This document shows positions 3,001 to 34,235 of a stretch of DNA of 64,000 bases, piece after piece; the stretch's first letter is position 1; each line of letters starts with the position of its first letter. The DNA is taken from positions 17,710 to 81,709 of IMG/VR virus record IMGVR_UViG_3300029713_000003; one strand, 5' to 3'. The DNA is from a virus (Duplodnaviria; Heunggongvirae; Uroviricota; Caudoviricetes). The position numbers were made by a program, and so were the translations under genes. The notes under the pieces were generated by a model. The model was not told the origin of the DNA, searched no databases, and saw only the letters and a program-made list of their open reading frames with translations.

Positions 3001-4471
3001 GTTTGTAGGACGCTGTGTTCAGAGTAACAGATGTGCTGGTTCGAGCAAGCTCCGCCTCTACCTCTGTTCCGTTCTGCAGCTCCTGTGCTCCTGTAACTTT
3101 TACCGTGTAGGCATGTTTCTCAATCTCGCCAGTGCCGTTGTAGACACCCTGAATCGAAGCGCGGGTAGCATTGATCGTTTCATTGTTCTTGGCTTTCGTG
3201 GCTTCAGAGGTTGTTTCTTTGGCGTTCTCTTTTTCCAGTTCGTCAATCGTTTGCTGCTTAGCCTCAATCGCGACTTCCTTTGCACCGATGGAACCGTTGC
3301 ACTTGCCAATGAATTTCAGAATGTGCGTTACGTTGGATGCGAACGTCAGCTTTGTGTCTGCAGTTACCGCCTGTGTTGTGTACTTCCCATCGTTGGTAAA
3401 CACGTACATCGTATCGCCAATCTCGAAGCTCTCTTGTGCGGTTTCTACTGTACCGCCAATATACTTTTCAGTCGGTGTCCCGTCCTTGACTGTCCAAAGC
3501 ACATAGTTCACACTGCCCCAAAGCAAAGAAAGCTCGCTGGACTTTGCAGATAAATCTGTTGCTGTCGCCATGGTTTCTTTCTTGATGGCTTTGATATCGG
3601 TCATATATTTATCCAGCGCTGCCTGATGAGCATCCGTAAAAGCGCCGATGCTTTTATAGTAATCGAAGTTCATCAGATAAGAAAGACCTGTGGGGTTCAC
3701 ATCGTCAATGCCGACATACTCTTTCTCATCATAGTCACCCTCGACATAAAGCCGCGTTACAATATTCTCGCTGTTTGATTCCTTGCTTAGCGCTGTCAGG
3801 TTCTTGCCTACTTCCATTTCCCAAAGGGGCTTCTTGTTATTCAGGTCAAAGCAGGCCACCTTTTTATTCACCGCATCATATACTGGATAGGCATTAAACA
3901 AGTCGCAGACCGATGCAATTAAAGAGTAAGCGCCCGCCTTGCTGTCCGAGCTGAGCGAGCGCTTCTTTTCTACTTTCTCTGCGGATTCATCCGTGGCATA
4001 GTTTTCATAGAAAACATCAGAGCCATCCTCATCAAATGTCCAGGCGGTTCCTGCAAGGATCTGATTCATCAGATAAGGAAGTGTACCGATGCCGTTCGTG
4101 TCATCAAAATATAAATACAGGTTCTTGGTCTTTAGCGTTCCAGATAGATGCCCACACTCCACGGTTCCGTTGATCTTCTTGCTGGACTTGCTCTTCTTGG
4201 GCGAGGTAATAATAAACCAGTCTTCTTTATTGCCTTCTTTTAACCGCACCTGATATTCTGCTTTGATGTATTTCCAACGCCAGTTATCTTCCTCTGCGGC
4301 ATCGTCTTTCTTCACCAGATAGGGTAAGGTAAAGTTCAGCGTCTTCCATCCAGAGAGCTCTGTCGTTACTGAAATGTCAAACGCCTGTCCCGGTGTCTGA
4401 ACCGTGCTGTCATACAGGTCGCAAACTTTCTTTCCTGAATAATCAAATACAGAAAGACTTTTCTGTTCCAT
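1..4471 (-). CDS. Tail fibre / Tal-like receptor-binding protein, N-terminal ~1490 aa (gene continues past window start)
   Basis: Continuous minus-strand reading frame with no stop from the ATG at 4471-4469 (RBS GGAGTGAAGGAAG) to position 1. Lies directly downstream of the TMP and Dit-like genes. C-terminal part is tandem ~126-aa repeats with a Y.Y.RYS..ADG ... TEG..LW ... T.Y.VSY.G pattern. Confidence 0.6.
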   Translation of the reverse strand, partial: MEQKSLSVFDYSGKKVCDLYDSTVQTPGQAFDISVTTELSGWKTLNFTLPYLVKKDDAAEEDNWRWKYIKAEYQVRLKEGNKEDWFIITSPKKSKSSKKINGTVECGHLSGTLKTKNLYLYFDDTNGIGTLPYLMNQILAGTAWTFDEDGSDVFYENYATDESAEKVEKKRSLSSDSKAGAYSLIASVCDLFNAYPVYDAVNKKVACFDLNNKKPLWEMEVGKNLTALSKESNSENIVTRLYVEGDYDEKEYVGIDDVNPTGLSYLMNFDYYKSIGAFTDAHQAALDKYMTDIKAIKKETMATATDLSAKSSELSLLWGSVNYVLWTVKDGTPTEKYIGGTVETAQESFEIGDTMYVFTNDGKYTTQAVTADTKLTFASNVTHILKFIGKCNGSIGAKEVAIEAKQQTIDELEKENAKETTSEATKAKNNETINATRASIQGVYNGTGEIEKHAYTVKVTGAQELQNGTEVEAELARTSTSVTLNTASYKLSSTDAALASDKTVVVNANDVKFSFGDYGITDALAESAAAAEIKDKSVYDLPANILNVSSVAKKIQLKCSSNSTGVVATLYGTTFTMTVSAVAYGLYEQFARAVKLAAEVGILSNTQKEQIKNQNNIEADFVLAMGDLLRDGYWNDDNYIKGQEQYLYNDALDVMKEVSKPTIKYTVSLMVMSDAMGYTPGQVELNSKVRIYDPELEINDTVYVNKIERYIDRKDQGSVEITNEEVNISANFDSIFSRITSIANLIEQKKTLFERSEAITSEGTLATERLNGAIDLLVTRFSSSVSSWYTDDNGNIIFESVDGSSAMQLCGDGWMIADGKKEDGNWNWRTAASGKGIVADAIYTGYLSAERIEAGSITASKLASDVGKSLDLSSNESVRLTVKDAVDSMVTYQLKITSDNGLFFSKSVAETTLTADVYANGENVTKKYDASKFKWLRSSGDDASDAVWNAAHIGMRSITLTNTDVPVSATFECQITIDVDEDLSRLYFDTVAVANLTDEDFRFYLSSNAPVTQVYDPNLGGGYTPDWAATPVEIEPYIFLYGTATTPGVNNAIVVTWKKMVGSTETALGSYEAVDASTGKLTINGNVLGADSVTYICAVSYNGETMGQDSLSFTQVVAAEKTKSCVLSGGNVFKYTDGVVNPNSQTIACSVVNVTIVEWQYRQADGSYAKVPGSGTGSTLTVNATDENLFVNDICTIKVITSDNSVYDIFSLYKVRNGATGDAGTSYYAYIRYSAYADGRQMKEAPTVDTKYIGSYAGPSETVPPYTAFKWSKYVGSDITVESTLVEYNQVSAEKPGRPDDDDAGWNTEVPTLTEGYFLWARTTVTFSDKSTMRTYSVSYNGKTGATGVSYYTYVRYSANADGSSMTRLPEKDTAYIGIYTGTASSAPIAYSAYTWSRLKGDAGTGVTVSSTVTKYAKTDSNEQPAEDSALWQDDIPSVTEGSYLWSKTIVTYSDGTTATTYNVSYSGTNGENTAHAFLTNESISFAAGD
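20..800 (-). repeat. Tandem ~380-nt (~126-aa) repeat units inside the tail-fibre gene (at least two near-identical units; further copies likely beyond window start)
   Basis: Long near-identical DNA stretches, e.g. 'gacttgtctgagaaggtcacggttgtccgcgcccataggaaatatccctcggtcagcgtcggtac' seen twice, and repeating protein blocks GATGxxxSYYxYxRYSAxADG. Confidence 0.5.
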
Positions 4472-4484
4472 CTTCCTTCACTCC

Positions 4485-5537
4485 TTAATGAACAAGCGGG
4501 GTGTACTCCATTTCAAATTTGGTCAGGGTCACGTTCCCCTCGATAGCCATTTGGTTCATGACAACAATCGTCGAGGATTCTTCACCACTGGCTTCCATGT
4601 TACCATTGAGAACGACGCCGTTTTTCGTGACGGCAATAATTCTCATCCACTTACCGCCGAGGTAAAGATACCTACCCACATGGCTCTGATCCAGTTCCTT
4701 GTTGTAGACGGTAACTGTGTTGCTGCCGGATGTATAGGCTACAAGCACTTCATCATAAAGAAGTCCCGATGGCTCCAGATCAATGAAGCCATAATCGTGA
4801 TACTCAAACATCAGCTCGCGTTGATTAGTGCTGGGGTCAACAAGCGTCACGCTCCCTTTCTGGCTGTCCAGTTCCAGATATGCAGGAGATGGGGGAAGAG
4901 CGATCAGCCTGCACTTCTGACCAGTTGTCTCGTTGCGGATCATAAAACCGTCCTTATCTGTTGCACCGCCAACTCGAATGATCGTCGGGGCGGTTTCTGT
5001 TCCGCAGTTATAAAAGATAAAACGTCTGTCGCTTAATTCCGGCGCAGCAGGCAGCTTGCTTTTTTCAAGCATTCCGCAGTATCTCGTAACGCCGTCTGTA
5101 TCAATGGTATCATAAGAACTGTACTCCAGTTTTCCAAACGGTTCATAAGCCGTAAAGGTAATAGAGAAAGTCCCGGAATACAGCGGTTCCATTCCATGCT
5201 CATGCTGCGAATACTGCTTGCCGGATGGCTTCTTTGTTATATACACATCGTAATACTTCCATGGCTTATCATCGAAGATCAGTCGCCCTGAACGCCTGCC
5301 GCTCAACCATTGTTTCATCTTTTCATAGGTCTTGCGCGGAATATCTTCATAATAGCAATTCAAAGAAAACTCTCGCGGCTTTGCCTTCCTGCCGTAATAA
5401 ATTCCGCCGTCATGCCAGTCAACGTCTTCGTCATACACTTCGTAGTCAGATCTATCGTCAAATAATGAACTCTCGTCCGGGATGTAGTACACACCAAAAG
5501 CACTGCTGTGTATTCCCATAAAAGAAAAACCATTCAT
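4485..5537 (-). CDS. Distal tail protein (Dit)-like / phage tail family protein
   Basis: ORF between the TMP and the fibre gene, which is the conserved siphovirus order TMP-Dit-Tal. Start taken at the internal ATG (MNGFSFMG) preceded by GGAGTG. The track ORF begins further upstream at 5585. Confidence 0.45.
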   Translation of the reverse strand: MNGFSFMGIHSSAFGVYYIPDESSLFDDRSDYEVYDEDVDWHDGGIYYGRKAKPREFSLNCYYEDIPRKTYEKMKQWLSGRRSGRLIFDDKPWKYYDVYITKKPSGKQYSQHEHGMEPLYSGTFSITFTAYEPFGKLEYSSYDTIDTDGVTRYCGMLEKSKLPAAPELSDRRFIFYNCGTETAPTIIRVGGATDKDGFMIRNETTGQKCRLIALPPSPAYLELDSQKGSVTLVDPSTNQRELMFEYHDYGFIDLEPSGLLYDEVLVAYTSGSNTVTVYNKELDQSHVGRYLYLGGKWMRIIAVTKNGVVLNGNMEASGEESSTIVVMNQMAIEGNVTLTKFEMEYTPLVH

Positions 5538-5649: not shown

Positions 5650-8600
5650 TTATAAAGCAATGCCGCCGACGGCGCGTCCACGGGTCATGGACTCCACGAT
5701 GGATTCCTTCACCTTGTCTGCCAAATCCTCAATGTCGCGGTCGCTGTCAAGCCGCTCCACTTTGATATTGATGTCGCCAAAGTTGTAGCCGTAGGACTTG
5801 TTGTTCGTTACGGCCTCGCCGTTATACTTCATTGGCGCTACACGAACTCGGTTCATTTGCTCCAAAGAAGCAACCAAGCCCTCGAACAGTTTTGTTTGTG
5901 TAGCAGACAAAATCCGTTCAGGATTAGCCTTGGTTCCATCAATCTGGATGGGCCCTGTAAAGTCGGCAATACCGCCGCGAGCATATTTCTTGACGGTGAT
6001 TTTGTCGTAGAACGTCCGCGCCCATTGTCCTATTGCGCTGGAACTGCTTCCTGAAAGCTGACGGCAAATAGAGTTGATCTTACTCTTGGTAGCAGCAATA
6101 GCCGCTTCCTCTGTGTCGTAACCCTTCAGGGTTCCGCCCTTTGCGCTTCCGATTGCAGGATAGGTCGCAGAGTATTTTTTCTTTCCTCCGCTGCCACCTC
6201 CGCTGGAACCACCTCCAGAAGAACCAGAGCTGCTTCCATCGTCGTCCGATCCGCCCCACTTGGTGTTATTGATGAACTTGCTGTTATCCAGCAGATTCGT
6301 CTGCATATCCTCGTAAGCCTTGCGGATCTTGTCAAACATATCCTGCCATCCTTCGATGTATGCTTCCTGCTGGAGCTTGCTCGCCTCACGGTATTTGTTG
6401 GAGTTCTCTTTCAGGAACGCAATTACCGCCTCATCACCCTGAGAGATAATATCCTGCACTTCTTGCCAGTGGTCGTGGATGATACCGTTCATCGTATCAA
6501 GCGTTTCTTTCCAGCCGTTCTCCATATCCGTCCGCGTGTTATCCGTGGAGTTCTTATAGTCCGTGCTGTTCTGCTCCAGCCAAGTCAAGATATCCTCCTG
6601 ACTCATCTTCAGGATGCTGTTCACTTGATCGATAAAGTTGCGCGGGTTATTCAACAGGTCTTCATAGTACTGCTCAATATAATCGCGGTAATCTTCCAGT
6701 GAAGAAATCTGCTGCTCAATGGATTTCTGCTGAGCCTCGCTTTCATTCTCCGCCTGATCCCAAGCAATTTCATCGCGCAGGTCGTCGATCTGGTCAAGAA
6801 TATCCTGTGCATCCTTGGCGCGTGTCGGGTCAGCCACAATACGGGAGTACTTTGCTTGCAGCTCTTGCAGCTGTGCCAGTTTGTCTTCCTGATCCGCCTG
6901 CTCCTTACGTGCGTCCAGCAATTCGGAAACCGCATCCTTCTCTTTGTTCAGCGCGTCGATTTGAGCGTCAATCGCATCAAGAATTGCCTGCTCCGCATCC
7001 TCCGCCTGAGCTTTCAAGATATCAAGGATAGTTTCCTCCATATCAATTCTAGCCTGCAGCATGTCGTCAATCCGCTGTTCACGGTCTTCGATAGCTTCTA
7101 GAATCTCATTCTCCAAGTCGAGCTTTAGCTGACGGATGGAATCATTCAGATCGTCAATCTTCTGCTTGTTGGACACAATGGAGGCTTCGTTTTCTGTCAG
7201 CTTCTGCGTCCAATCAGTGATGGCGTCCTGAATGGTATTCACCCGGCTCAAGATAGCGTCATACGCTTCGGTATCCGGGGTTGTGGAGTTGAACTGGTCA
7301 ATCAGTGCCGGCAGTCGTGCCTGCGCTTCTGCGATCTTCTCACGCAGAATCTTGTCCTGATCTTCCAGCATCTCATTCACCTGACCAAGCGCTTTGATCT
7401 CTGCGGTGAAGTAACCTTCAGAATCCCAGATGTTCATAATCGTATTCAACTGAGACATGCGATCCGTGATCCGCTTGACGGTGTTATCAACCTGCTCTAC
7501 CCAGCGCTCTTCCTCCGTGCGGGAACTGTCTTTTTTAGAGCTGCTATTGTTCTTGGAGCCGCTTCCACCACCGCCACCACTGCTCTTGGTGCTGGCTTTA
7601 CGATGAGAACCGGAGGAGAAGGGGTTGTTGCCAGTTGGCTTCAAAACCTTGTAAGTACCGTTGACCTGTCTGCTCACAAAGTCTCTTACTGTGCTGTCCC
7701 ATACTTTTGCAACACTGTTCACGGGGATCGTTTCCACTTCAAACTGGCCTGTCTTGATTAACGTATCCAGCATTTCCTGCGCCATGTTATCCACAATCAC
7801 AATGCCGTTCTCAAGGTCAGAGAAATCAACAGAAGACGTACCGGTAATGTTGAAGAACGCCTCTTGGTTTAGCAAGTCAAGCGCACTCAATCCATCTTGC
7901 GCATATTGCTGAAGCATGGCCGGAATTTGATCCCACGCCTGTAGAACCGCTTGGGGACTCATGCTCAGCACGCTCGCAATCTTGCTCACGTCAGAATACA
8001 AAATCTGATCCGCGCTGGAATATTTCTTGGCGAGGTTCTCATATTCCTGTGCAGCTTCAGCGTAGTTGTCTGCCATGGTGTAAACCTTGTCATAAGCACT
8101 TAAGACAGCAGCGCTGCTATCCGTTGCCTCGGTCATCTTCTCGATTTGCTTCGTAACATCATCGAAGTGCGTGTCGGCAACCTCTCGGTTCAAATCACTG
8201 AAGGCATCCTTCATGTCTTTCATAGCAGATGAGGCCGCGTCCGTATCGCCTGTGTCCAAAGCCTTCTTGTACCGTTCCCATGCGGTGCTGAACTTTAGAA
8301 TTGCATCGCTGTTATCAAGCATCCACTTTTGCTCTTCGGCTGAAGCAGATGCGAACTTTTCAATATAAGCATCCAGCCCGTCCAGCGTGCCATCTTCGCC
8401 AATGCTCATTAGGTTAGAAAACTCACTGAGCAGCGACTTCCCGTCTTCGTCTGTAACACCGCTATGGCTTTCCCTGTAATTATTCAATGCCACCAGCATT
8501 TGGTCAGAAGCGTTGGCAACCGCATCAGAAAAGCCTTCAAGGTTCTCGCCGGTTTCGCTGAGTCCGCCATTATCTCCAAGCTCTGCGATCTCTTTCAAAT

Positions 8601-11600
8601 AAGCTGTGAACTGTGGGAATACCTCAAGGAATTTTTCAAGGTTGCTGCTGTCAAGTCCTTGCATCCAAGCAAACAAAGCAGAACCGTCCACTGTTCCATC
8701 CTCGTTGATAAAACTCCGCAATTGGTCTATCCAGCTCTTGAAGTTACTGTTCTGTAGTGCTTTCAGCTCGTTATCGCTCGTCTGGTTCGCCAAAACTTTT
8801 GCAAGTTTAGAAGAGAGCTTTTCAACGTCAGTGCTCGCATCGTCTGCGGCGTCCCCAATATCCGCAAGCCCAGACGCTACGCCGCCAAAACTTTCTTTGG
8901 ATGGTAACTGAACAAAGAAGTCGTCGCCGTATTTTTCTTTGAGTGCATTATATGCAACTTCCAAACTGGCATATGCTGAATCAAATTCATCAGTACCATA
9001 CTTCGAATTGACGGCGTTCAGAGCTTTGATCCAATTGGCACCCCACTCAGTCTGTAACATCTTTTCTGAATATTCACTAGCACCCTGAAGAAGTTTCAAC
9101 ATCACGCCATTGATAGTCTCGTCGCCTTGTTTCATGGCTTCGACAAGCTGATCGATATAAGTTACGCCTGCGTCCTGAGCAGAGCCGACAACTGCATCTT
9201 TAATGCTGACTCCGTATTGAACCGATAGTGTTTCCAGTTCGTCGAACGCTTGGGCCAATGCGCCATCTTTGCCGACGTAATGCATGGCCTCGCCGGTCTT
9301 GATGGCTTCATCGCCAATATCAGCCAGAAGGTTTTTGATGATTTGCCCATCAATTTCAAGCCCTTCAGCATCTAGTGCAAACAGTTCTTCATTTGTCCAA
9401 GAACCATCTTCGTTTGCTTTATCAATAAGTCCCCAGATGTATTCATCTACTGTATTTGCATCCAGCAGCTTTGCGCCTTCTGGAGTTTGCAGTATTGGAG
9501 TAAAAGCAATTTCAATGCCATCATAATCCGCAGATGTTCCCATGACTGTTGATATACTTCCTTTTAAGTCATCAACAGTATATCCCCAAGATTCGTAGGC
9601 ATCTTTGAAAGCCTCAAGATTTTCTTCTGTCCATTCAAGCACCTGACGATTATTGGTATCAATATTTCCGTAAATCGTTTTACCAATATCTACGCCTAAA
9701 TCATCTGCTTCTTTACGAATGGCTTGGTAATCCCGAACGGCTTGTTTCAAATCATTTGGAATGCCAATAAACGTTCCAATCGTACCGTCTGTAAACATAT
9801 TCTCAAAGTAAGATTCAAACAATGCTTGGCTTCCGAAATCCATGTTGTCCCAATCCATTGGTTTCATTGAGTCAAACATGCTTTCAAATAATTGCTGTGC
9901 ATAGGTCTTTGCAGCTTCGTCCGCAGCCTCGTCATTCTGTGAACTCTGAACGGCATCAATAATAAATTGGCCGAGGTCAAGATCGTTTTCAGATGCATCA
10001 AGCGCTTCTTTGTAGGCAGTCACAAACTGTGACACGAACTTGGTAGCAAGGTTGGTGCCTTCGATGAGCCCCTTGTCGGAGTACAGCGCCTGTCTCACAT
10101 TTTCAACTACGCCATATTGTGCTTGCGTTATTTCGTTTACAATCTGCGTAACGGACATTTTGCCCCACCAGTGCTCATCGTTCATATTTGGGATGAGCTG
10201 TCCAATGGTTGAGATAGCGCTTTGGCCGGATTTAGAATCATACAGTCTGCCAATATTTGCGCTCAATGCAGGATCATTGATAATATCATAGCTATTATAT
10301 TTCTTCTGATCGGTTCGATACGCATCCATAATCTGCTTGATGCTGAGCTTGTTTGCTGCAGTTACTACACCGTTATAGCTCTGGGCAAGTCGATCCAGTT
10401 CTTCTCGCAGCGCTTTGGTTACGCCTTCCTGATTCTCCATACCGCCAGACACGTTAGAGAGCGCCATGGCTAATGTTGGTGAGAAGGTCTGCAGCTTCTT
10501 CCAAACTTCTTTTAGCTGAGCCTCTTCTTCTTGCGTGCGGTTTGTGATGGAAATTAGCTTCGTATACTCGCTTTGGAGTTTACTCAAAGAGGAATAATTC
10601 GTGGTGATATCTGCTTGCTTTTTCTGAAGCTCTTGCAATTTCTGCGCTTCATCGTGCGCGTTCCTGTATGCGCCAACAAGTGTCACAACACCAGCCGTGA
10701 TAGCAGCCAAAGTTCCTACTACAAGCGCCACCTTACCGCCAGTTAGGATTTTAGCAATATCGCCGATGCCTTTTGCAGCGCGAAGCGCTTTAACAACAGA
10801 GACAAGTTTACTAACCAGAAGCACAGCCGAGCCAACCGCAGCAGAGAAGACAAGGACATTCTTTGTCACCTGACCAAATCCTGTTTCCATACCGCTTGCA
10901 AAATTATCTGCCAATGAAGCCATTGTGGTATAAAAACTCTTAAGCGTTTCATTATCAAGGATAGTGGTGTACAAACGTTCGAGGGAAACGTTTAGATTTC
11001 CTTGTGCAGCAGCAACAGAATCCAGCCAGACCTCATACTTTTCTGTAACCGTTCCCGCTGATTCCATTGCACCGGCCAGCAGTTCATACATCCGGCTTCC
11101 GTTTTCAGCACCCTTGGCCATGTCGCCCATCAGTGCCAAGAAAACGTTTTGCTGTTTTGTACCAGCCATTGTTGTTGCAATATAAGACTTCTGCGCCGCA
11201 TCGAGCCCATTCCATTTAGATGCAATCTCATCAAGCACCGCAGCCATATCTTTCCACTGGCCATTCTCAAACAGATTGATTCCAAGAACATCACCCAGTG
11301 CTTTGGAAATATCGTTGGCTCCTGTTGTCGTTCCATCATCATTGGTCGTGTAGCCAGTTTTCTTGATACTGTGCCAACGAGCAATAATTGTATTAAATGC
11401 AGTACCAATAGACGCCGCATCCTGACGTGTCGTTTCAGAAACCGTTGCAATGTATGCGCCCAGATGCTTAAAGTCCAAACCGAAAGCCGCAGCCGCTGCA
11501 GCAGCTTTCTGCATTGCCGTGCCGATTTCTGAACCGGACGAAGCGGATGCGTCGCCGAGATAAGTGAACAAATCAACAACCTCTTGCGCGGAAACGCCCA

Positions 11601-14600
11601 TAGAGTTTGTGGACGCAGTGATCTGCGTAGCAGCTTCATCAAACGACTGGGCTGTAATCTTCGCATACATAGATGCCCACTTGGTACGAGACATCGTTTC
11701 TTCTTCGTCCAAGCCCTGACGCCAGAACTCAACAGCTGCTGTGGCAATATCAGTAGAAGAAATCTGGAGTTCTTTTGCAAGATTGCGATACGATTGGCTT
11801 AGCGCCTCAATCTGACTATCCGTCTGCATCGTAACAATCTGAATCTCGTTCAGCTTGTCAAAGTATTCCGTTGCATAAGAAATCGCGTTAGTCCAAATGC
11901 TGCGAAGCGCTCGTGCTACGATCATCGTTTTTGCCATCTGGACAATTTGATTCAGCAGCTTTTCACTAACCTCGCCAGTCTTGAGGCTTAAGTCGTTTTC
12001 CAGACGAACACGCTGCTCCTGTATCTGCTTCAGTTTGGTTTGCGTATCAAGACCAGTTTTATCCATGCTATTGACCTGCTGAGCAATGCGTTCTTCTTCC
12101 TGACGCAAACGGTTAATCTCAGCCTGACGTGCAGCACGTTGTGCTCCTGTTCCTTTGCCTGACTGGTTTTCAAGTGTGAGCCTACGCTTTTCATATGACC
12201 ATTGTTCTTCCAAAAGCTGATTATATTCTTTTTGGCGGGTAGCAACGCTATTCGAATTTACAGCAGCGGCATACCGCTTTTGAGCTTCAGTGGCAGCGTC
12301 AATGTAACTTTGCTCTTGAGCCAATGCGGAATTCTTTTTCAAAATGTCTTTGATCTCGGCATCAAGGTTTTGAGCGCGGCGGGTGTATTCGTCTTTGTCA
12401 ACAGTTGTTGTTGCCGTTTCCGCTTTGGTCATGAGATCCCAGTACTCTGCCGTCTTGCTAATCAGGGCGCTTAGATTGCTTGATTGATTCGCACTCTGCT
12501 GTTTTGCAGAAAGATTATCCAAAGCGTCGGATGTCTTTTGTTCTGCTTCAGTCCAAGCATTTTGAACCGCAACAGAATTGCGTACCGTATCAGAGTAAGA
12601 ATCGTAAGAGGCTTTCGCACGATTGATCTGCTCTTGGAGCGTAGCAAATTCCGGTGAATCCGTCTTGAATTTTGCCTGTGTCTTTTGCAGACTATGGTAC
12701 TCGTTCAGTGCCTTGATGCAACCCTTAATCTGATCCTGTTCATATGCAAGGCTTTGTTTGTACTCGGTATCCGCTTCTTTTTGAGCAATCTTATCCGTTG
12801 TGTCACGATAAGCCTGAACAGCGGCAGCCTGTGCTTTCACGTAAGCGTTCGTAGCGTCTGTCTGTGCCTGAAGGATAGCTGCAGAGTTGCGACGTTTATC
12901 GTCCAAACCATCCATTGCCCTTTCAGCTTGATTGATTTTTTCAATAGCCTGGTCGTATAGATCAGCAGCCAGATCTTCATCTTTTGCAGAGAAAGACTGT
13001 GAGATCAAAGTCCCAGCACTCTTGTAAAGAGATACAATCTCATCAACAGCAGATTTTTGATTGGCTGTGCCACGAATCACTTGGCTGGTTATTTGAGCGG
13101 CGGTATTATAATACTGAGTGATGCTACGGTTGGCTTCGTTCCATCCTGTTGCGACCGCTCCAGTAACAGATCCATCTCTTCCATAAGTGACCTGAAGATT
13201 ATGAAGACGAGTGATGCGGTTCTCCAGTTGGTTGACCTGTTCACCAGATGCCTCAGCCTGAGCGCCGATGTTAGAAATATTCGTGCCGGAAGAATTGATG
13301 TTCTCTTTAATAACCGACAAAAGATGTTCGCCTTGTGTGTTGTTTTGATTACTGTTGAGCAACTGAGAAATAGTATCCATTACAACACGGAGCCTTTCAG
13401 GATCCAGATGCGTAATGGCTTCGCCCATAGAAGATATTGCCTGCGCAATACCATTCAAACCATCACGAAGGTTTGCCGTCATCGACTCGGAGAGCTTGGT
13501 ACTCATAGAGTCAGCCAAAGTAAGACCATCCGTAGCACCAAGCGCTGTCTTAATTTCTTCCAGCTTCTCTGCTGTTTTCTGTAAATCAGTTAGAGAACTT
13601 TCGATTTTGCTAAAGCCAGTTTCCTCGTTCTTTACCGCAAACAAATCATGCAGCGCTGCGACAAGTTCACTCAGCTTCTTTGTATCGAAAGCAGCCAGCG
13701 TTTGAGCCACAGCTTGTAGATTAACCGCGAACTGTTTCATGTCTCCGCTGTTTTGAAAGCCGGTAAAGAAACCATTCGCCTTTGTTAAGCTGGTCTGGCT
13801 CAGGTCGCGGAACTTGGATATATACTTGTTGGTATCCTGAATAAATGCCGCTGCTGGATCGGTAGAAAACATTTCTTTGATAGATGCAGAGAAGGAACCA
13901 GAAGTCTGAGCCACCACACGATTCAGCGCATTCTCACTCACATTAACATCTTGGAGTGCGTTTTTGAAATCCTCTACATTGATGGTTGCGGTTGTTGTCT
14001 CTGTGGATAGCTTACGGATATGTTCGGCAAATGTAGCCTGTCCCTTTACATCGATATTGAAATCATTCAGAGCCGCTTCATAACTTTCGTAATCTGTAAA
14101 GATATGAGTAATCAGTGTCCCGATTTTCTCAAGTTCTTCGGCAAAATTGACAAGGCCAGCGGTGGCGTCTGTCGGATCGGCCATGATGAATGCGTCAATA
14201 TTATTCCGAGATCCTTCAAGCGCATCAATAAAAGATATAACTTCTTGTTTGGATTTGTTTATATCTGATACTGTTTTGCCGACAAATACATTCGTTACCG
14301 CATTGCCAACATCCGTCATTTCTTTTGTTAGTTTTTTGAAGCTCTCGGTAAGCTGCTCTACTTGCCCGTCGCTCAAACCATTCAGTTTTTGAGCAAACTT
14401 GTCAAGCTGCTTTTCATCAGATAGAGTTTTAAGGGCGGCTGCAATAGCGGCAATATCTCGACCAACTGTAATCTTAGCCTTATTGCTACCATTCTGTACT
14501 GTAGCAAGCCCTTTAATAATTGTTCCAATAGCCTTTTCTAACTCGGAAGTATCGCCAATAAAGTCTTCAGCTGAAGCATCCTTGGTTTTATTTTGAGCAT

Positions 14601-15873
14601 TAGTAATTGCTTCCGCACTTTTATTTGTTGCAGTCAATGCCTGGTTAGCATTTGTTTTCATCTTAATCAGTTCATCAACGACTCCACTGACAGATTCTGC
14701 TGCCTCATGCATTGCCCCAGCAAAATTCTTGGTATTTTCAACTTGTGTAGTAGTTAGCGTGTTGTTTTTTAGAGCCGAGAGTACATCATTCAGTTGCTCT
14801 GCTTTTGACTTGGTTGTATTCAGCGCTTTGTCAACTTGACCAGTAACTTTTGAGGCGTCACTTCCTTTGACAATCGCAGCGGAGATTTGACTGCCGATAG
14901 AAAGAATATTCTGCTTAATATCTTCAAGATGTTCACTAATTGATCGAAATGTCACAAGGTCATCTGAATTTACCAGATTGCCATTCTTGTATTTTATTCC
15001 AGAAACTTCTCTGAAAGCGTTTGCAAGATAACCAACAGCGCTTGAGAGATTTGCAAGCCGCTGATCATCAGGCAATGCTTTTGTTATATCCACGCCGCCT
15101 GCCGCGTCTCTTGCTGCAATAGCCTTCTCAGCGACTACATCAAGAGACTTTGCAAGTTTGCTGAACGCGCTTCCATCAACCGATCCATCAAACTCTGCCA
15201 GTTTGCCAATAGCATTCACAAGCGTAGTGATCTTCCGGTCAACATTTGTCAGTCCGTCCATGGCGTCAACGAAATCTCGTACCTGCTCGGCGAGGGGTGA
15301 TAGGTCTATCACACTCCCTTCGCTGTCCTTACCCATTCCTGCAAGCACGCTGTTCAGCTTGCTTAGATCTATGGTGGCAATGTTCTTAAGTGCAGTCGCA
15401 TAATCACGGAGAGCAGAAGATGCCTTTTGAACATCGTCGCTCTTAAAGGCTTTTAGAAAGTCTTCACTCTGAATGAGCGCACTGAACTTCTTAATGCTAT
15501 TCTGTAAATCAGCTAACTGATCTTGCACTTCAGTTAATTTAACCTTGTTTACGTCAGCCATGGAGTCTGCCATCTTCTCCATATAGGAATCAATACTACC
15601 TACGATCTTGCCAACGTTTGTATCAAGGCTCTGCAAATTCCGCGCTACCTGAGAAAGATCAATCGTGTTCGTAATCTTGCCAATCTCAGTTTGAATGGTT
15701 GTGGCTGCCTGCACAACACGATTCGCCAACGAAGAAAATTCATTCTTCACCTGTGCAAAGTCAGCAGCACTGTTCACATTGTCAACCGTCTGCTGAATTG
15801 CCTTGGCTCCTTTTTGAATAGAGCGCAGGCTCAGCTCTATGCTGGCTGACAAAATATTGCTTTCATTTGCCAT
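5650..15873 (-). CDS. Tail tape measure protein, giant (3407 aa)
   Basis: Single 10.2-kb ORF. Has long coiled-coil-like Q/A/K/E-rich N-terminal region. The central block (...FGLDFKHLGAYIATVSETTRQDAASIGTAFNTIIARWHSIKKTGY...) is typical of the TP901-family TMP core. Hydrophobic segments (VLVFSAAVGSAVLLVSKLVSVV..., VALVVGTLAAITAGVVTLVGAY) and Gly/Ser-rich linkers are present. Position between the chaperone genes and Dit/Tal fits a TMP. Confidence 0.8.
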   Translation of the reverse strand: MANESNILSASIELSLRSIQKGAKAIQQTVDNVNSAADFAQVKNEFSSLANRVVQAATTIQTEIGKITNTIDLSQVARNLQSLDTNVGKIVGSIDSYMEKMADSMADVNKVKLTEVQDQLADLQNSIKKFSALIQSEDFLKAFKSDDVQKASSALRDYATALKNIATIDLSKLNSVLAGMGKDSEGSVIDLSPLAEQVRDFVDAMDGLTNVDRKITTLVNAIGKLAEFDGSVDGSAFSKLAKSLDVVAEKAIAARDAAGGVDITKALPDDQRLANLSSAVGYLANAFREVSGIKYKNGNLVNSDDLVTFRSISEHLEDIKQNILSIGSQISAAIVKGSDASKVTGQVDKALNTTKSKAEQLNDVLSALKNNTLTTTQVENTKNFAGAMHEAAESVSGVVDELIKMKTNANQALTATNKSAEAITNAQNKTKDASAEDFIGDTSELEKAIGTIIKGLATVQNGSNKAKITVGRDIAAIAAALKTLSDEKQLDKFAQKLNGLSDGQVEQLTESFKKLTKEMTDVGNAVTNVFVGKTVSDINKSKQEVISFIDALEGSRNNIDAFIMADPTDATAGLVNFAEELEKIGTLITHIFTDYESYEAALNDFNIDVKGQATFAEHIRKLSTETTTATINVEDFKNALQDVNVSENALNRVVAQTSGSFSASIKEMFSTDPAAAFIQDTNKYISKFRDLSQTSLTKANGFFTGFQNSGDMKQFAVNLQAVAQTLAAFDTKKLSELVAALHDLFAVKNEETGFSKIESSLTDLQKTAEKLEEIKTALGATDGLTLADSMSTKLSESMTANLRDGLNGIAQAISSMGEAITHLDPERLRVVMDTISQLLNSNQNNTQGEHLLSVIKENINSSGTNISNIGAQAEASGEQVNQLENRITRLHNLQVTYGRDGSVTGAVATGWNEANRSITQYYNTAAQITSQVIRGTANQKSAVDEIVSLYKSAGTLISQSFSAKDEDLAADLYDQAIEKINQAERAMDGLDDKRRNSAAILQAQTDATNAYVKAQAAAVQAYRDTTDKIAQKEADTEYKQSLAYEQDQIKGCIKALNEYHSLQKTQAKFKTDSPEFATLQEQINRAKASYDSYSDTVRNSVAVQNAWTEAEQKTSDALDNLSAKQQSANQSSNLSALISKTAEYWDLMTKAETATTTVDKDEYTRRAQNLDAEIKDILKKNSALAQEQSYIDAATEAQKRYAAAVNSNSVATRQKEYNQLLEEQWSYEKRRLTLENQSGKGTGAQRAARQAEINRLRQEEERIAQQVNSMDKTGLDTQTKLKQIQEQRVRLENDLSLKTGEVSEKLLNQIVQMAKTMIVARALRSIWTNAISYATEYFDKLNEIQIVTMQTDSQIEALSQSYRNLAKELQISSTDIATAAVEFWRQGLDEEETMSRTKWASMYAKITAQSFDEAATQITASTNSMGVSAQEVVDLFTYLGDASASSGSEIGTAMQKAAAAAAAFGLDFKHLGAYIATVSETTRQDAASIGTAFNTIIARWHSIKKTGYTTNDDGTTTGANDISKALGDVLGINLFENGQWKDMAAVLDEIASKWNGLDAAQKSYIATTMAGTKQQNVFLALMGDMAKGAENGSRMYELLAGAMESAGTVTEKYEVWLDSVAAAQGNLNVSLERLYTTILDNETLKSFYTTMASLADNFASGMETGFGQVTKNVLVFSAAVGSAVLLVSKLVSVVKALRAAKGIGDIAKILTGGKVALVVGTLAAITAGVVTLVGAYRNAHDEAQKLQELQKKQADITTNYSSLSKLQSEYTKLISITNRTQEEEAQLKEVWKKLQTFSPTLAMALSNVSGGMENQEGVTKALREELDRLAQSYNGVVTAANKLSIKQIMDAYRTDQKKYNSYDIINDPALSANIGRLYDSKSGQSAISTIGQLIPNMNDEHWWGKMSVTQIVNEITQAQYGVVENVRQALYSDKGLIEGTNLATKFVSQFVTAYKEALDASENDLDLGQFIIDAVQSSQNDEAADEAAKTYAQQLFESMFDSMKPMDWDNMDFGSQALFESYFENMFTDGTIGTFIGIPNDLKQAVRDYQAIRKEADDLGVDIGKTIYGNIDTNNRQVLEWTEENLEAFKDAYESWGYTVDDLKGSISTVMGTSADYDGIEIAFTPILQTPEGAKLLDANTVDEYIWGLIDKANEDGSWTNEELFALDAEGLEIDGQIIKNLLADIGDEAIKTGEAMHYVGKDGALAQAFDELETLSVQYGVSIKDAVVGSAQDAGVTYIDQLVEAMKQGDETINGVMLKLLQGASEYSEKMLQTEWGANWIKALNAVNSKYGTDEFDSAYASLEVAYNALKEKYGDDFFVQLPSKESFGGVASGLADIGDAADDASTDVEKLSSKLAKVLANQTSDNELKALQNSNFKSWIDQLRSFINEDGTVDGSALFAWMQGLDSSNLEKFLEVFPQFTAYLKEIAELGDNGGLSETGENLEGFSDAVANASDQMLVALNNYRESHSGVTDEDGKSLLSEFSNLMSIGEDGTLDGLDAYIEKFASASAEEQKWMLDNSDAILKFSTAWERYKKALDTGDTDAASSAMKDMKDAFSDLNREVADTHFDDVTKQIEKMTEATDSSAAVLSAYDKVYTMADNYAEAAQEYENLAKKYSSADQILYSDVSKIASVLSMSPQAVLQAWDQIPAMLQQYAQDGLSALDLLNQEAFFNITGTSSVDFSDLENGIVIVDNMAQEMLDTLIKTGQFEVETIPVNSVAKVWDSTVRDFVSRQVNGTYKVLKPTGNNPFSSGSHRKASTKSSGGGGGSGSKNNSSSKKDSSRTEEERWVEQVDNTVKRITDRMSQLNTIMNIWDSEGYFTAEIKALGQVNEMLEDQDKILREKIAEAQARLPALIDQFNSTTPDTEAYDAILSRVNTIQDAITDWTQKLTENEASIVSNKQKIDDLNDSIRQLKLDLENEILEAIEDREQRIDDMLQARIDMEETILDILKAQAEDAEQAILDAIDAQIDALNKEKDAVSELLDARKEQADQEDKLAQLQELQAKYSRIVADPTRAKDAQDILDQIDDLRDEIAWDQAENESEAQQKSIEQQISSLEDYRDYIEQYYEDLLNNPRNFIDQVNSILKMSQEDILTWLEQNSTDYKNSTDNTRTDMENGWKETLDTMNGIIHDHWQEVQDIISQGDEAVIAFLKENSNKYREASKLQQEAYIEGWQDMFDKIRKAYEDMQTNLLDNSKFINNTKWGGSDDDGSSSGSSGGGSSGGGSGGKKKYSATYPAIGSAKGGTLKGYDTEEAAIAATKSKINSICRQLSGSSSSAIGQWARTFYDKITVKKYARGGIADFTGPIQIDGTKANPERILSATQTKLFEGLVASLEQMNRVRVAPMKYNGEAVTNNKSYGYNFGDINIKVERLDSDRDIEDLADKVKESIVESMTRGRAVGGIAL

Positions 15874-17462: not shown

Positions 17463-18257
17463 TTAAGCCGCGACCGCCTCGTAGGACAGGTCGAACATCT
17501 TCTCGTCCGCACGCTTCGGGTCAAGCGCAGTAAAAGTCACGCCGTGTGTAGACGCAGACTTATATGAGTTGTCAAAACCGGGCAACGCTGTAACACGCAC
17601 GCGAGGGATAAACAGATGCACCCAGCCTTTGATTGCAGCTTCTGTGCAGTCTGTACCAGAAGAGTAGACCGGCCAGTGAGCATACAGAGCACCCTTGGCG
17701 GTGGTAGACTTGGTAGTCACAGAAACAATGCTCGCCTTATCACCAATCACGCGACGGTAAGCAATGCGGATTGTATCTCCATCAGCAAGATCGCCGTCAT
17801 GGAAAGTAACGGTAGCCTTGGACGCTTCGATCTTCACAGAGATCTTCCCTTCCGCGCTCGGCGTGTCCGCAGCATCCAGCTCGAAGCCATTGATCTTCAC
17901 ACTGCCGGCAGTCACAACATACGGGATCTCTGCCTTGTTGCCCTTGACCTCAAACAGCTTGGACTCAAGGGTATCGTAAGCCGCGTCGCCTTCCTTGATG
18001 TTAGACGCATTTGCCATGGCGAACATATCCAATGAGAACGCTGAAGAGTCAAACGTAAACTCCAGTGTACGAGACGTATCGATGATAGCCAGTGGGAAGT
18101 TGGACTGACCGCCGTTAATGGTCAGGGACTCTGACTGGTCGTTCATTGAAGCGGTGTTCACTTCATCATAAGAGAACACCTTGCCGTCACAACGCTCGAA
18201 CTCAATGTTCGGGTTGTCAGCAATATAGCCCTTTAGCTTTTCAACATAAACAGCCAT
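17463..18257 (-). CDS. Major tail protein (264 aa)
   Basis: Position upstream of G/GT; followed by a strong terminator; beta-rich composition. Confidence 0.5.
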   Translation of the reverse strand: MAVYVEKLKGYIADNPNIEFERCDGKVFSYDEVNTASMNDQSESLTINGGQSNFPLAIIDTSRTLEFTFDSSAFSLDMFAMANASNIKEGDAAYDTLESKLFEVKGNKAEIPYVVTAGSVKINGFELDAADTPSAEGKISVKIEASKATVTFHDGDLADGDTIRIAYRRVIGDKASIVSVTTKSTTAKGALYAHWPVYSSGTDCTEAAIKGWVHLFIPRVRVTALPGFDNSYKSASTHGVTFTALDPKRADEKMFDLSYEAVAA

Positions 18258-29537: not shown

Positions 29538-29613
29538 TGGTGCCAGCGGTCGGACTTGAACCGACAAATCAACGGGTTAGATCCGTTTGCATATGCCATT
29601 CTGCTACACTGGC
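29538..29613 (-). tRNA. tRNA with anticodon CUA (candidate amber suppressor; isotype undetermined, possibly Gln-derived)
   Basis: 76-nt cloverleaf: acceptor GCCAGTG/CGCTGGC, discriminator A, CCA encoded. Anticodon stem AACGG/CCGTT is perfect. Anticodon loop is AUCUAAC with U33, C34-U35-A36 and A37. T arm is GTCGG-TTCAAGT-CCGAC. Confidence 0.6.
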
Positions 29614-30246: not shown

Positions 30247-30717
30247 TTAGTTCAGAATGATTTTCTCTTTCTGCGATTGCTCTGCATAATCCTGAAACAT
30301 GATATTACCGGCGAGTAATTCGTCATAGCTGATACAAGAAGTGCAGCCGTTCCGAACCATCAGGGACTGTTCCTGAACACCGGGCATCACAACAAGCAGA
30401 ATCGGCTTTTCTTTTGCAAAGGCATAGCCGGCTTCCCAAGCAGTACCGCAAGTTCCATTCCTGCCAAAGTCAAACACGACCACTGTATCAGATTGGTCGA
30501 TTGCAAGAACATCTTCGGTAAACACGCATCGCGCCCATTCGCTCTGCGGCATGTTCCATGCGTTGGGAATCTTTAGCTTTCTAGGATTGTAGATGTTTGC
30601 CTGACGACCGAGCTTGTCCTGAACATATTTTTCAAGAACCAAGATGGCGTCGTCAATTTGACCGCGCTTGCTGCACGACAGTCCGACAACCGGCGCGGCA
30701 ATATAAAAATCAAACAT
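30247..30717 (-). CDS. Nucleoside 2-deoxyribosyltransferase-like protein, about 156 aa
   Basis: Strong RBS AGGAGGG-N5-ATG at the internal Met; the track ORF extends upstream across tRNA-Tyr. Motifs FYIAAP ... FDFGRNGTCGTAWEAGYAFAKEKPILLVV resemble the NDT family signature. Family assignment is from memory. Confidence 0.5.
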   Translation of the reverse strand: MFDFYIAAPVVGLSCSKRGQIDDAILVLEKYVQDKLGRQANIYNPRKLKIPNAWNMPQSEWARCVFTEDVLAIDQSDTVVVFDFGRNGTCGTAWEAGYAFAKEKPILLVVMPGVQEQSLMVRNGCTSCISYDELLAGNIMFQDYAEQSQKEKIILN

Positions 30718-31520: not shown

Positions 31521-32453
31521 TTACTCAATACTTCCAATGTCTACGATGGGAGTGCTGCCGCCGGAAACCTTCGGTACAGAACCGTCCCACTTTTCGTACT
31601 TGATCTTTTCAATCAGCTCAGGGGTAAGCGAAGCAGCAATCTTCTTGTTCGCGTCGGCTTCCGCTTCTGCCGCAATACGCAATGCTTCAGCGTCCGCCTG
31701 CGCAGCGATCAGCTTTTTGTCCGCCTCAATCTGAGCAACTTCCTTGTCTCGTTCTGCGTTGATTTGCGCAATGTTCCGATCCTTCTCTGCTTTGATACGA
31801 TCTGTTTCTGCCTCAATCTCCGCCAGCTCTTTATCCTGCTGAGCATTGACCTTCTTCTGGATAGCCGCTGCGGTTTCCTCGTCCACAGAAATATCTGTAA
31901 AGTTTACCGTATCAATGATGATGCCGTACTTATCGAACTTCTCTCGCAGATAAACGTCCAACTCCGCATTGATCTTGGTGCGCTTGTCGCCAAAGATATC
32001 TGTCACCGGGTAGTTCGCAGAAACTTCCTGCGTCCATGCAATGATCTTCGGTTTGATAAAGGTTTCCTTGATCTGCTCGCCGCTCTTGCCCTTGAACTGA
32101 ACAAAGGTATCGGACACTCGGTCGGCGTCGAAACGATAAGAGAACTCAAGGTTCACACGAACCGTCTTGCCATCCGATGTCGGAATCACAAAGCTCTCAT
32201 CCTTGGGAGAATCACCTTTAGAGTCAGTGGTCAAATAGCTCTGCTCAATGCCGATAGAATAGAGCGTCACATTCTTCGTCGGTGAGATCACATGCCAGCC
32301 TTGTGAAAGCGTATCGCCTTCAATACCGCCGTTCATGTTGTACACAACGCCGACATAGCCGGCTGGAACACGTTCCGTGCAGAAACCAACGCACACCAGA
32401 ATGACGACCATCACAACGCCCAGAACAATCGCACCTACAGTACCTTTTCTCAT
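31521..32453 (-). CDS. SPFH/band-7 (prohibitin/HflK-like) membrane protein, 310 aa
   Basis: N-terminal transmembrane helix, then an SPFH-like core (GYVGVVYNMNGG...) and a long charged coiled-coil C-terminus. Confidence 0.6.
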   Translation of the reverse strand: MRKGTVGAIVLGVVMVVILVCVGFCTERVPAGYVGVVYNMNGGIEGDTLSQGWHVISPTKNVTLYSIGIEQSYLTTDSKGDSPKDESFVIPTSDGKTVRVNLEFSYRFDADRVSDTFVQFKGKSGEQIKETFIKPKIIAWTQEVSANYPVTDIFGDKRTKINAELDVYLREKFDKYGIIIDTVNFTDISVDEETAAAIQKKVNAQQDKELAEIEAETDRIKAEKDRNIAQINAERDKEVAQIEADKKLIAAQADAEALRIAAEAEADANKKIAASLTPELIEKIKYEKWDGSVPKVSGGSTPIVDIGSIE

Positions 32454-32614
32454 ACTTCCTTCTGCGCTCCTTCGTCCTTATCTTCTTCTAGGATTTTTTC
32501 TTTTGCGTCGCGATAAATACGTTGGAAGAGTATACCGAGCGGTTGAAACAGTGCTGAAGCACAAAACCAGATTCCGACAGCCGCTACCACAACCAGAAAA
32601 TAAAACACCGGCAT
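32450..32614 (-). CDS. Small membrane protein (NfeD-like partner candidate) upstream of, and overlapping, the SPFH gene
   Basis: Internal start with strong RBS AAGGAGGAAG. Hydrophobic MPVFYFLVVVAAVGIWF... The track ORF extends across tRNA-Asn. Confidence 0.4.
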   Translation of the reverse strand: MPVFYFLVVVAAVGIWFCASALFQPLGILFQRIYRDAKEKILEEDKDEGAQKEV

Positions 32615-32720: not shown

Positions 32721-33524
32721 ATATAAAAGGGAAAGCCTGAGACTTACTTGAGCTCTCCATGCTCTCTTCTCCTGTCGTTGGAAACAGCCAGTCACACACC
32801 GGGTTAGGGTGTAGAGAGCAACCACACTGGTTTTGAGAAAGCCAGCAAAATCTTGCAATGGAGTATTATAGATTTTCTTTCAGCACATCGCTCCTTGCGG
32901 GATGCAGAGCTTGCGGGCTCTTACGGTTGCACCTACTTGTACTTTCTTACATGTCGCCTTGCGAGCTTCATGCACGTTCATATTCCAGAACGATAAGTGG
33001 TTTGTTTCTCCAAAGCCACATACACTTTTGCTTCTTCATTTCTCAATAACATTAGAAATTCATGCTGCTTTTTCAAAAGCTAAGTGTATGTTCTGGATGA
33101 CGGGGTATGTGCTTGACCATTCGTGCCTTTTGAACACGACCCAGCCGCCGCCACCCTGCGCGTCTTGCTATCGACGCCCTTCCTGTGCGGCACCTTTCTT
33201 TCGATATGAGATGCCCGTCCACAGGATCCGTACAGCACTCACCCTTGCGAAGCTCGCACCATACGTCGGTTCATGCATTCTACTCATTTCTGAGATTAGG
33301 TTTCTAGCGCTTTTCCCATAGCGCCCATCCGACCATAGTCATCAGCAGTTGCCCTCTGACCGCAGGCAGGATGTATGCAGATACCGGTTTTCCGTTGCAG
33401 TGTCCAAGACACTCGCACAAGGTACAACCCTTGTGCTTTATACGTATCACTACGCTTATCTAAGGAGCCGAAACCACCCCGTCCCTTGTTTCATTTCAGG
33501 CTGAAACAGGGAATAAAAGAACCA

Positions 33525-33600
33525 TGGTAGCAGACTTGGGAGTCGAACCCAATCCTCAAGGAGCATGAATCCCGCGACTTAACCGCTTGTCCTGTCTGCT
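33525..33600 (-). tRNA. tRNA-like with CAT anticodon; degenerate (imperfect anticodon stem, G37), possible pseudo-tRNA
   Basis: 76 nt. Acceptor AGCAGAC/GTCTGCT is perfect and the T arm TTGGG-TTCGACT-CCCAA is good. The anticodon stem has a mismatch and a wobble pair. Confidence 0.4.
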
Positions 33601-33703: not shown

Positions 33704-33958
33704 TCACTCGCAAATTTTCCAATCTGCAGCCAACATATCTGCTTGAGACGCAAGCCAGCCCATCTGTATGCCGCCGGTTCCAACAAACGCAATCGCCTGA
33801 TTCCCAATCGCGTCATGTTCGCAGTTGACAATTTCGTTCCGGCTGTTGATGTAGCTGATGCAGGTTGCTAGTTCAATATACTGGTTTTTACCGTTCCACC
33901 CGCTGCGCTGCACACGTGCTCCGCACTTCATTGCCTCAATCGCTTCTCCGAATTTCAT
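33704..33958 (-). CDS. DUF2829 / Tad2-like small protein (candidate anti-Thoeris sponge), 84 aa
   Basis: MKFGEAIEAMKCGARVQRSGWNGK ... SQADMLAADWKI matches my recollection of the DUF2829 N- and C-terminal signatures. RBS GAAGGAG; sits inside the tRNA array. Confidence 0.5.
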   Translation of the reverse strand: MKFGEAIEAMKCGARVQRSGWNGKNQYIELATCISYINSRNEIVNCEHDAIGNQAIAFVGTGGIQMGWLASQADMLAADWKICE

Positions 33959-33979
33959 CTCAAGACTCCTTCATTTCTC

Positions 33980-34053
33980 TGGTCGAAAACGTCGGACTCG
34001 AACCGCTACTCGTCGTCCCAGGCGACGCGTGTTACCATTACACCACGTTCTCG
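33980..34053 (-). tRNA. tRNA-Pro-like (anticodon TGG) with C33 and a weak T stem; possibly degenerate
   Basis: Anticodon stem CGTCG/CGACG is perfect; loop CCTGGGA; acceptor pairs. The T stem has only 3 bp. Confidence 0.4.
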
Positions 34054-34235
34054 TTATCCGGTGAGATTTGGATCATACCAAATCAAACACCCGTCTCTTC
34101 AGCTCTTCCATATTGCCATCCGCCTCATAGAGACCGGCAATCCTCGCAGCGCTGAAGAACATCTTCACCATCTTCAAAAACATGATCTTCAACCTTTTGT
34201 TTTTTATTATTTGTGCAGGTCTGGGCACCGCACAT

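Follow-up and report, generated by a model that had tools for sequence, protein, structure and literature searches.

Genes and RNAs around the tad2-like gene

The window analyzed here (the whole 64,000-nt stretch, positions 17,710 to 81,709 of IMG/VR record IMGVR_UViG_3300029713_000003) carries on its minus strand a short open reading frame (ORF) at positions 33704 to 33958, read from an ATG (33958 to 33956) to a TGA stop codon and encoding a protein of 84 amino acids (MKFGEAIEAMKCGARVQRSGWNGKNQYIELATCISYINSRNEIVNCEHDAIGNQAIAFVGTGGIQMGWLASQADMLAADWKICE) that consists of a single stand-alone PF11195 domain. An earlier note on this DNA had described an 84-aa protein with its own ribosome binding site, hidden between tRNA genes. 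Both terminal strings that it quoted were found in the translation, and a Shine-Dalgarno motif (AAGGAG, 33966 to 33971, minus strand) lies 7 nt 5′ of the ATG, within the spacer that separates the gene from the preceding tRNA. The flanking genes are indeed tRNAs: upstream, tRNA-Pro(UGG) (33980 to 34053, minus strand; ARAGORN; Rfam, 42.5 bits) ends about 21 to 22 nt before the start of tad2, and downstream, a tRNA(CAU) of the Met or Ile2 type (33528 to 33600, minus strand) follows 104 nt after the stop codon. The latter was not called by ARAGORN and was detected with Rfam (RF00005, 43.4 bits; gathering score 29), with the anticodon loop UUCAUGC in the Rfam alignment and a C-U mismatch atop the anticodon stem.

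The tad2-like ORF is a genuine, well-conserved gene. An identical protein is encoded by 22 public metagenome contigs (the longest of 124 kb), and a related 115-kb phage (L007), collinear with the window phage over 29-38 kb at 73-83% DNA identity, carries a syntenic copy that is 82% identical. Comparison of these two genes gave a dN/dS of 0.084, showing strong purifying selection.

The array in which tad2 lies comprises 21 tRNA genes (20 called by ARAGORN, plus one by Rfam) between positions 29538 and 35330, all on the tad2 strand. Read along the minus strand, tRNA-Pro is followed by tad2, tRNA(CAU), a GOLLD-like RNA, tRNA-Asn, a gene for a 54-aa single-transmembrane (TM) protein and an SPFH gene, and then by seven tRNAs, a nucleoside 2-deoxyribosyltransferase (NDT)-like gene, five tRNAs, an exonuclease gene and the terminase region. 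The NDT-like neighbor named in the earlier note was borne out (30247 to 30717, minus strand; 156 aa; PF05014, 43.4 bits versus 28.8; PHROG 7995). The same note had also listed an SPFH pair, which proved half right: there is one SPFH/Band_7 gene (31521 to 32453, minus strand; 310 aa; PF01145, E = 5.1e-26; PHROG 200), and its partner is the 54-aa single-TM ORF (32450 to 32614, minus strand), not a second SPFH gene. The stop of this small ORF overlaps the SPFH start; it was called as a gene on public contigs and is conserved in L007, and a profile search gave it no family match.

The array carries variable cargo slots, as shown by two positions that differ between the window phage and L007. In the window, a 51-aa ORF (34073 to 34228, minus strand) sits between tRNA-Gly and tRNA-Pro; it is not conserved in L007, where the same slot (9180 to 9751) contains an unrelated Cys-rich 51-aa ORF and a 141-aa ORF on the opposite strand; after the NDT gene, L007 has an extra Bro-N/ANT gene.

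At the far end of the array is a tRNA(CUA) with an encoded CCA end (29538 to 29613, minus strand), an amber suppressor labeled Pyl by ARAGORN. TAG is the rarest stop codon in the window (7 of 72 long ORFs). Recoding of TAG was considered and rejected, since reading it as sense chiefly extended ORFs on the wrong strand, and code 11 leaves the long structural genes uninterrupted.

The ORF-free gap of approximately 0.8 kb downstream of tad2 and tRNA(CAU) is occupied by a GOLLD-like large RNA. Its conserved 3′ half lies at 32734 to 33156 (minus strand) and matches Rfam model RF02032 over its full length (positions 1 to 416) with 92.2 bits (E = 1e-24), a score that falls below the gathering score of 150 for this family. 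The variable 5′ half probably fills the stretch from 33157 to approximately 33520, within which no credible ORF was found. A syntenic GOLLD-like copy is present in L007 (10828 to 11241; 78.8 bits), and the two copies seem to represent a diverged branch of GOLLD RNAs carried by Clostridia phages. GOLLD RNAs are known to occur near phage tRNA islands, and GOLLD env-38 lies downstream of a Met-tRNA; the window resembles it in that tRNA(CAU) stands directly 5′ of the GOLLD-like RNA.

The phage and the distribution of its Tad2 subfamily

The source of the window is a siphovirus-type phage of approximately 120 kb that has not been cultured and probably infects gut Clostridia. Its large terminase subunit shares 31% identity with that of Clostridium phage c-st, and a megablast comparison of the region with cultured phages matched a single tRNA and nothing else. 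The tape-measure ORF (5650 to 15873, minus strand; 3,407 aa) matches tape-measure protein families and is unusually long, implying a very long tail.

A word-indexed search with the 84-aa protein returned 3369 homologues at E ≤ 1e-3, of which the best 120 were 71-96% identical and mostly also 84 aa long. An exhaustive search at the same threshold gave 2959 cluster representatives (50% identity), many with N-terminal extensions or tandem copies. Among species-representative genomes, the subfamily occurred almost wholly in Clostridia of the gut and rumen, among them Lachnospiraceae, Oscillospiraceae, Blautia, Coprococcus and Ruminococcus, and the nearest homologues in cultured phages were those of Dorea and Ruminococcus gnavus phages. 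The 84-aa subfamily is very common in phages and prophages of gut Clostridia, with thousands of near-identical members. Five proteins (P0121, P0122, P0124, P0131 and P0141) are natural forms of approximately 164-180 aa that carry two Tad2 domains of this subfamily in tandem, and many others have unrelated N-terminal extensions. The tandem-domain forms could reveal which dimer interface is used.

Family assignment and predicted fold

The earlier note had proposed a DUF2829 signature and a Tad2-like protein, to be refuted by the lack of a significant DUF2829 match. This outcome did not occur, and profile comparison clearly agreed with the note: the 84-aa protein matched PF11195 with E = 3.9e-21 (75.8 bits; cut-off 25), the alignment spanning residues 1-82 of the protein and positions 1-72 of the 73 in the profile. 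PF11195, formerly DUF2829, is the family to which Pfam now gives the name “Tad2-like”. Taken with the 3369 homologues and the low dN/dS, this match shows that the DUF2829 assignment did not arise by chance. All sequence matches in the PDB were likewise Tad2 proteins (SptTad2, SPO1 gp34.65, HgmTad2/AcrIIA7 and ModTad2; E = 2.4e-11 to 5.6e-8).

AlphaFold2, run with 53 members of the subfamily, gave a model (pLDDT 88.7) with elements in the expected order helix, beta-sheet, helix (a helix at residues 3-11, six strands and a helix at residues 72-76). Structure comparison pointed to the same family, with the top 22 Foldseek matches of this model in the PDB all being Tad2 chains (probability 1.0; TM 0.54-0.72) and the first match after these having only E = 0.37. 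By sequence and by predicted fold, then, the 84-aa protein belongs to an already known family of phage proteins, Tad2 (DUF2829), and is not something new.

Membership in this family raises one reading that may be dealt with here. HgmTad2 was also named AcrIIA7, shares the domain with the window protein (PDB sequence match, E = 9.5e-11), and one homologue in a Klebsiella phage is annotated as “anti-CRISPR protein”, from which the window protein might be taken for an AcrIIA7-type inhibitor of Cas9. However, Li et al. could reproduce no Cas9 inhibition by HgmTad2 or any other Tad2, in vitro or in vivo, and Cas9 binding has never been demonstrated in the literature, where the anti-CRISPR reading is already largely refuted; for the window protein we consider its probability negligible.

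Conservation of the ligand pocket and length of the insertion

SPO1 Tad2 is a homotetramer in which two inter-protomer pockets hold 1''-3' gcADPR via W25, W73, N26 and D79, with T78 hydrogen-bonding the adenine and waters being held by D67, H71 and S76. The corresponding gcADPR pocket of HgmTad2 is formed by W21, N22, G23, W87, S90, T92 and D93. Residues W21, N22, G23, W68, S71 and D74 of the window protein align with pocket residues of these two proteins (W21, N22, W68, S71 and D74 with SPO1 W25, N26, W73, S76 and D79, respectively), and the core pocket residues were invariant across six functionally tested Tad2 proteins and 53 members of the subfamily. Around this core, the adenine-contacting Thr (SPO1 T78, HgmTad2 T92) is replaced by Ala73 in the window protein, the water-coordinating D67 of SPO1 by Gly63, and SPO1 H71 falls opposite a gap. 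With the equivalents of T78, D67 and H71 absent, the pocket of the window protein differs from those of the solved gcADPR complexes.

Tad2 proteins vary in their targets, with different members inhibiting type I, II and IV Thoeris, CBASS and Pycsar. The main target here could therefore be a CBASS cyclic dinucleotide (CDN) or Pycsar cUMP/cCMP, bound in a second pocket formed at the V-shaped dimer interface by the insertion between beta2 and beta5. It is at that interface that HgmTad2, SptTad2 and MoTad2 bind CDNs or cUMP, and eight insertion residues of the window protein (I34, S35, Y36, N45, H48, G52, N53 and A55) are invariant among the 53 subfamily members, suggesting a constrained surface. 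Against this, the CDN pocket of HgmTad2 is built by, and needs, an insertion of approximately 41 aa; the long insertion of the HgmTad2, SptTad2 and SaTad2 type is not present in the window protein, where approximately 27 aa (residues 30-56) are found instead. This is near the 24 aa of SPO1 Tad2, which binds no CDNs, and the middle region of the window protein did not align to HgmTad2 or SptTad2. Full conservation of the canonical pocket, moreover, implies that it is this pocket that is used, and we regard a CBASS or Pycsar signal as an improbable main target.

Probable ligand and proposed mechanism

Sequence relationships within the family suggest which signal the canonical pocket may hold. 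Among the homologues listed by Yirmiya et al. (Table S12) is a Tad2 from a prophage of Clostridium cadaveris (CcaTad2) with the signature NQYIELA...GWLASQADML, and the window protein is 69.5% identical to that sequence over 82 aa, with identical pocket positions. Identity to the Tad2 proteins of SPO1, R. callidus, T. morbirosei (TmoTad2) and M. odoratus (ModTad2) is only 32-42%, making CcaTad2, by sequence identity, the closest tested relative. CcaTad2 and TmoTad2, like ModTad2, were reported to inhibit type II Thoeris, which signals with His-ADPR (for CcaTad2, the B. amyloliquefaciens system); ModTad2 was reported not to inhibit type I Thoeris (Sabonis et al., bioRxiv 10.1101/2024.01.03.573942). 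Identity of the window protein to this type II-inhibiting group is uneven, being 69.5% to CcaTad2 and only 32-35% to ModTad2 and TmoTad2. His-ADPR occupies the canonical A-B pocket of ModTad2, and this is the pocket conserved in the window protein.

It is also worth noting that Sabonis et al. give the DNA sequence of CcaTad2 among their plasmids (Table S3, plasmids 19 and 20). Of these two, the plasmid labeled TmoTad2 has the AT-rich sequence assigned to C. cadaveris in Table S12 of Yirmiya et al., and the one labeled CcaTad2 carries a GC-rich sequence. To judge from the Yirmiya table and from GC content, the two labels appear to be swapped. As both constructs were positive, the apparent swap leaves the type II conclusion untouched.

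Because its nearest tested relative inhibits type II Thoeris and the His-ADPR pocket of ModTad2 is conserved, His-ADPR is more likely to be the ligand of the window protein than the gcADPR bound by SPO1 Tad2, an assignment based on a single plaque assay of one relative (CcaTad2) in a preprint. The reading closest to that of the earlier note is different: a sponge for the type I signals 3'cADPR/gcADPR only, in the manner of SPO1 Tad2, with no binding of His-ADPR. Four of the five first-tested homologues inhibited type I, and the window protein retains W, N, W and D of the pocket core. Yet its closest tested relative, with the same pocket residues, inhibits type II, and SPO1 T78, D67 and H71 are not kept. 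The protein that shows type I inhibition to be compatible with Ala at the Thr site, #82 of Hadary et al., comes from an R. callidus-like “KTAxN” group and not from the NQYIELA...VGTxGxQ subfamily of the window protein. On balance, restriction to type I signals seems rather unlikely; binding of 3'cADPR/gcADPR in addition to His-ADPR, or in its place, is possible.

A residue rule that would separate the two specificities (SQTD for type I; SQAD, SQGD or SVSD for type II) was tried and rejected: it held for seven proteins and was broken by Hadary #82, which has SQAD and inhibits type I and not type II Thoeris (Hadary et al.). The Thr is thus not strictly required for type I inhibition. The 84 proteins screened by Hadary et al. 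include a sole member of the window subfamily, #84, a construct of 60 aa (Table S2) that scored negative against each of the seven systems. This fragment lacks W68, S71 and D74, and the natural gene behind it (IMGVR_UViG_3300029850_000053, positions 7396-7650) encodes the full 84 aa. The negative result should not count as a property of the subfamily, which, given the shortened construct, is essentially unprofiled and may include inhibitors of type I. One test against type II Thoeris is the only one made of a full-length member of this abundant subfamily, and the largest specificity screen contained it as an inactive 60-aa construct; a ligand profile would be cheap and informative.

Drawing on these comparisons, we propose that the window protein probably acts as a stand-alone Tad2 sponge that blocks Thoeris. 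By homology, it would be expected to assemble into a homotetramer with inter-protomer pockets lined by W21, N22, W68, S71 and D74. There, an ADP-ribose-derived alarm molecule from a TIR protein of the host (ThsB), most likely His-ADPR, would be bound and sequestered without being degraded. Deprived of its signal, the Thoeris effector would stay inactive, and the abortive response of the infected cell would not set in. Such a role would mark the phage as carrying a countermeasure to TIR/Thoeris signaling, implying that its gut hosts use systems of this kind.

Expression from the tRNA array and the question of an anti-defense island

The suggestion in the earlier note that the tRNA array doubles as an accessory or anti-defense island is only partly supported. 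In its favor are the variable cargo slots and the occurrence of tad2 beside tRNAs in several lineages: an unrelated 158-kb phage (L016) has a tRNA on either side of the gene, at 32 nt upstream and at 7 nt downstream, and in several prophages a tRNA lies 110-170 nt downstream of it. Phage tRNAs are themselves known as counter-defense against tRNA-cleaving systems such as PARIS. On the other side, most loci with this subfamily (68 of 80 in IMG/VR and 69 of 80 in genomes) have no tRNA close by, comparison of the other array genes with anti-defense and defense models gave no match, and PADLOC and NCBIfam scans of tad2 and its neighbors returned nothing useful. The tRNA array of L016 also contains a skipping-rope RNA (RF02924; 8408-8472, plus strand; 38.6 bits versus a gathering score of 36.7).

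What looks like a clearer anti-defense cluster than that of the window is found in a 55-kb phage (L017), where a Tad2 of the window subfamily is encoded 1.4 kb from a PF25185 “Tad3” gene (3977-4645 and neighbors), with two Lar-like restriction-alleviation genes and a DNA methylase gene nearby.

The SPFH gene of the array is part of a further observation. In five large-phage contexts, an SPFH/Band_7 gene lies 0-2.5 kb downstream of tad2 on the same strand (31521-32453 in the window, 6276-7745 in L014, 8793-9641 in L016, 8266-9246 in L017 and 5251-6729 in L103), with the proteins belonging to different SPFH subfamilies. A general Tad2-SPFH linkage, suggested when the first four large-phage contexts all showed an SPFH gene no more than 3.5 kb downstream, was rejected, as HMM scans found SPFH in one of 80 IMG/VR loci and one of 80 genome loci and the SPFH proteins are of different subfamilies; SPFH near tad2 in large phages is an unexplained feature and not a general rule.

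Promoter and terminator scans gave counts at chance level, with no site directly upstream of tad2. It is conceivable, although we give the idea limited credence, that the array is a single counter-defense transcription unit in which tad2 has no promoter of its own and is transcribed together with the tRNAs and the GOLLD-like RNA, its mRNA being freed by RNase P/Z cutting of the flanking tRNAs (tRNA punctuation). The tight tRNA flanks of tad2 in L016 and the downstream tRNAs of the prophages are compatible with such a unit. If it existed, one early transcript would supply extra tRNAs (against PARIS and other anticodon nucleases), a sponge for the Thoeris signal, an SPFH membrane protein and a nanocage-forming RNA. 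With tad2 set between tRNAs and beside a GOLLD-like RNA, the window offers a defined locus for asking how the protein cargo of phage tRNA arrays is expressed.

The same setting might be read as a sign that the Tad2 fold serves a non-immune role here, for instance one tied to the tRNA and GOLLD RNA locus, given that tad2 is set among RNA genes in two unrelated large phages and that the function of the window protein is proposed by homology. However, 68 of 80 IMG/VR loci and 69 of 80 genome loci of the subfamily have no tRNA within 5-10 kb, so the function of tad2 cannot depend on tRNAs or GOLLD, and the characterized members of the family are all signal sponges. A non-immune role is accordingly very improbable, and a Thoeris-blocking sponge remains the preferred reading.

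Comparison with known signal sponges

The strategy proposed for the window protein, a small homo-oligomer that sequesters immune nucleotides, is shared by Tad1, Acb2, Acb4 and Sequestin; these have unrelated folds and gave no sequence or fold match to the window protein. Within the Tad2 family, the N- and C-terminal halves of HgmTad2/AcrIIA7 and SptTad2 (PDB 8KBI-8KBM and 8WJD) align well with the window protein (GWNGK... and GWLASQxDMLAxDW), and HgmTad2 pocket residues W21, N22, G23, W87, S90 and D93 are kept; the two differ from it in the longer insertion that forms their CDN pocket. ModTad2/MoTad2, from a Myroides odoratus prophage (PDB 8V3E and 9EIB), gave the lowest rmsd among the fold matches (3.2-3.6 Å) and founded the type II-inhibiting group in which CcaTad2 was placed. 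Its identity to the window protein is, however, only 32%, with SVSD in place of SQAD, and it additionally binds cUMP/cCMP and 2'cADPR.

SPO1 Tad2 (gp34.65; PDB 8SME, 8SMF and 8SMG) shares with the window protein the Pfam family, the fold, 40% identity and a short insertion, and is likewise a stand-alone protein of approximately 90 aa in a large Bacillota phage. Its insertion forms helix alpha2 with an F44 stack, whereas that of the window protein is predicted to form beta-strands. CcaTad2, for which a type II Thoeris phenotype alone is reported and no type I result was found in the literature, differs in having an annotated N-terminal extension of 9 aa and in being encoded in a prophage, outside any tRNA array. 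It resembles the window protein in its 84-aa core, its NQYIELA...AFVGTxGxQxGWLASQADML signature and its origin in a Clostridia host.
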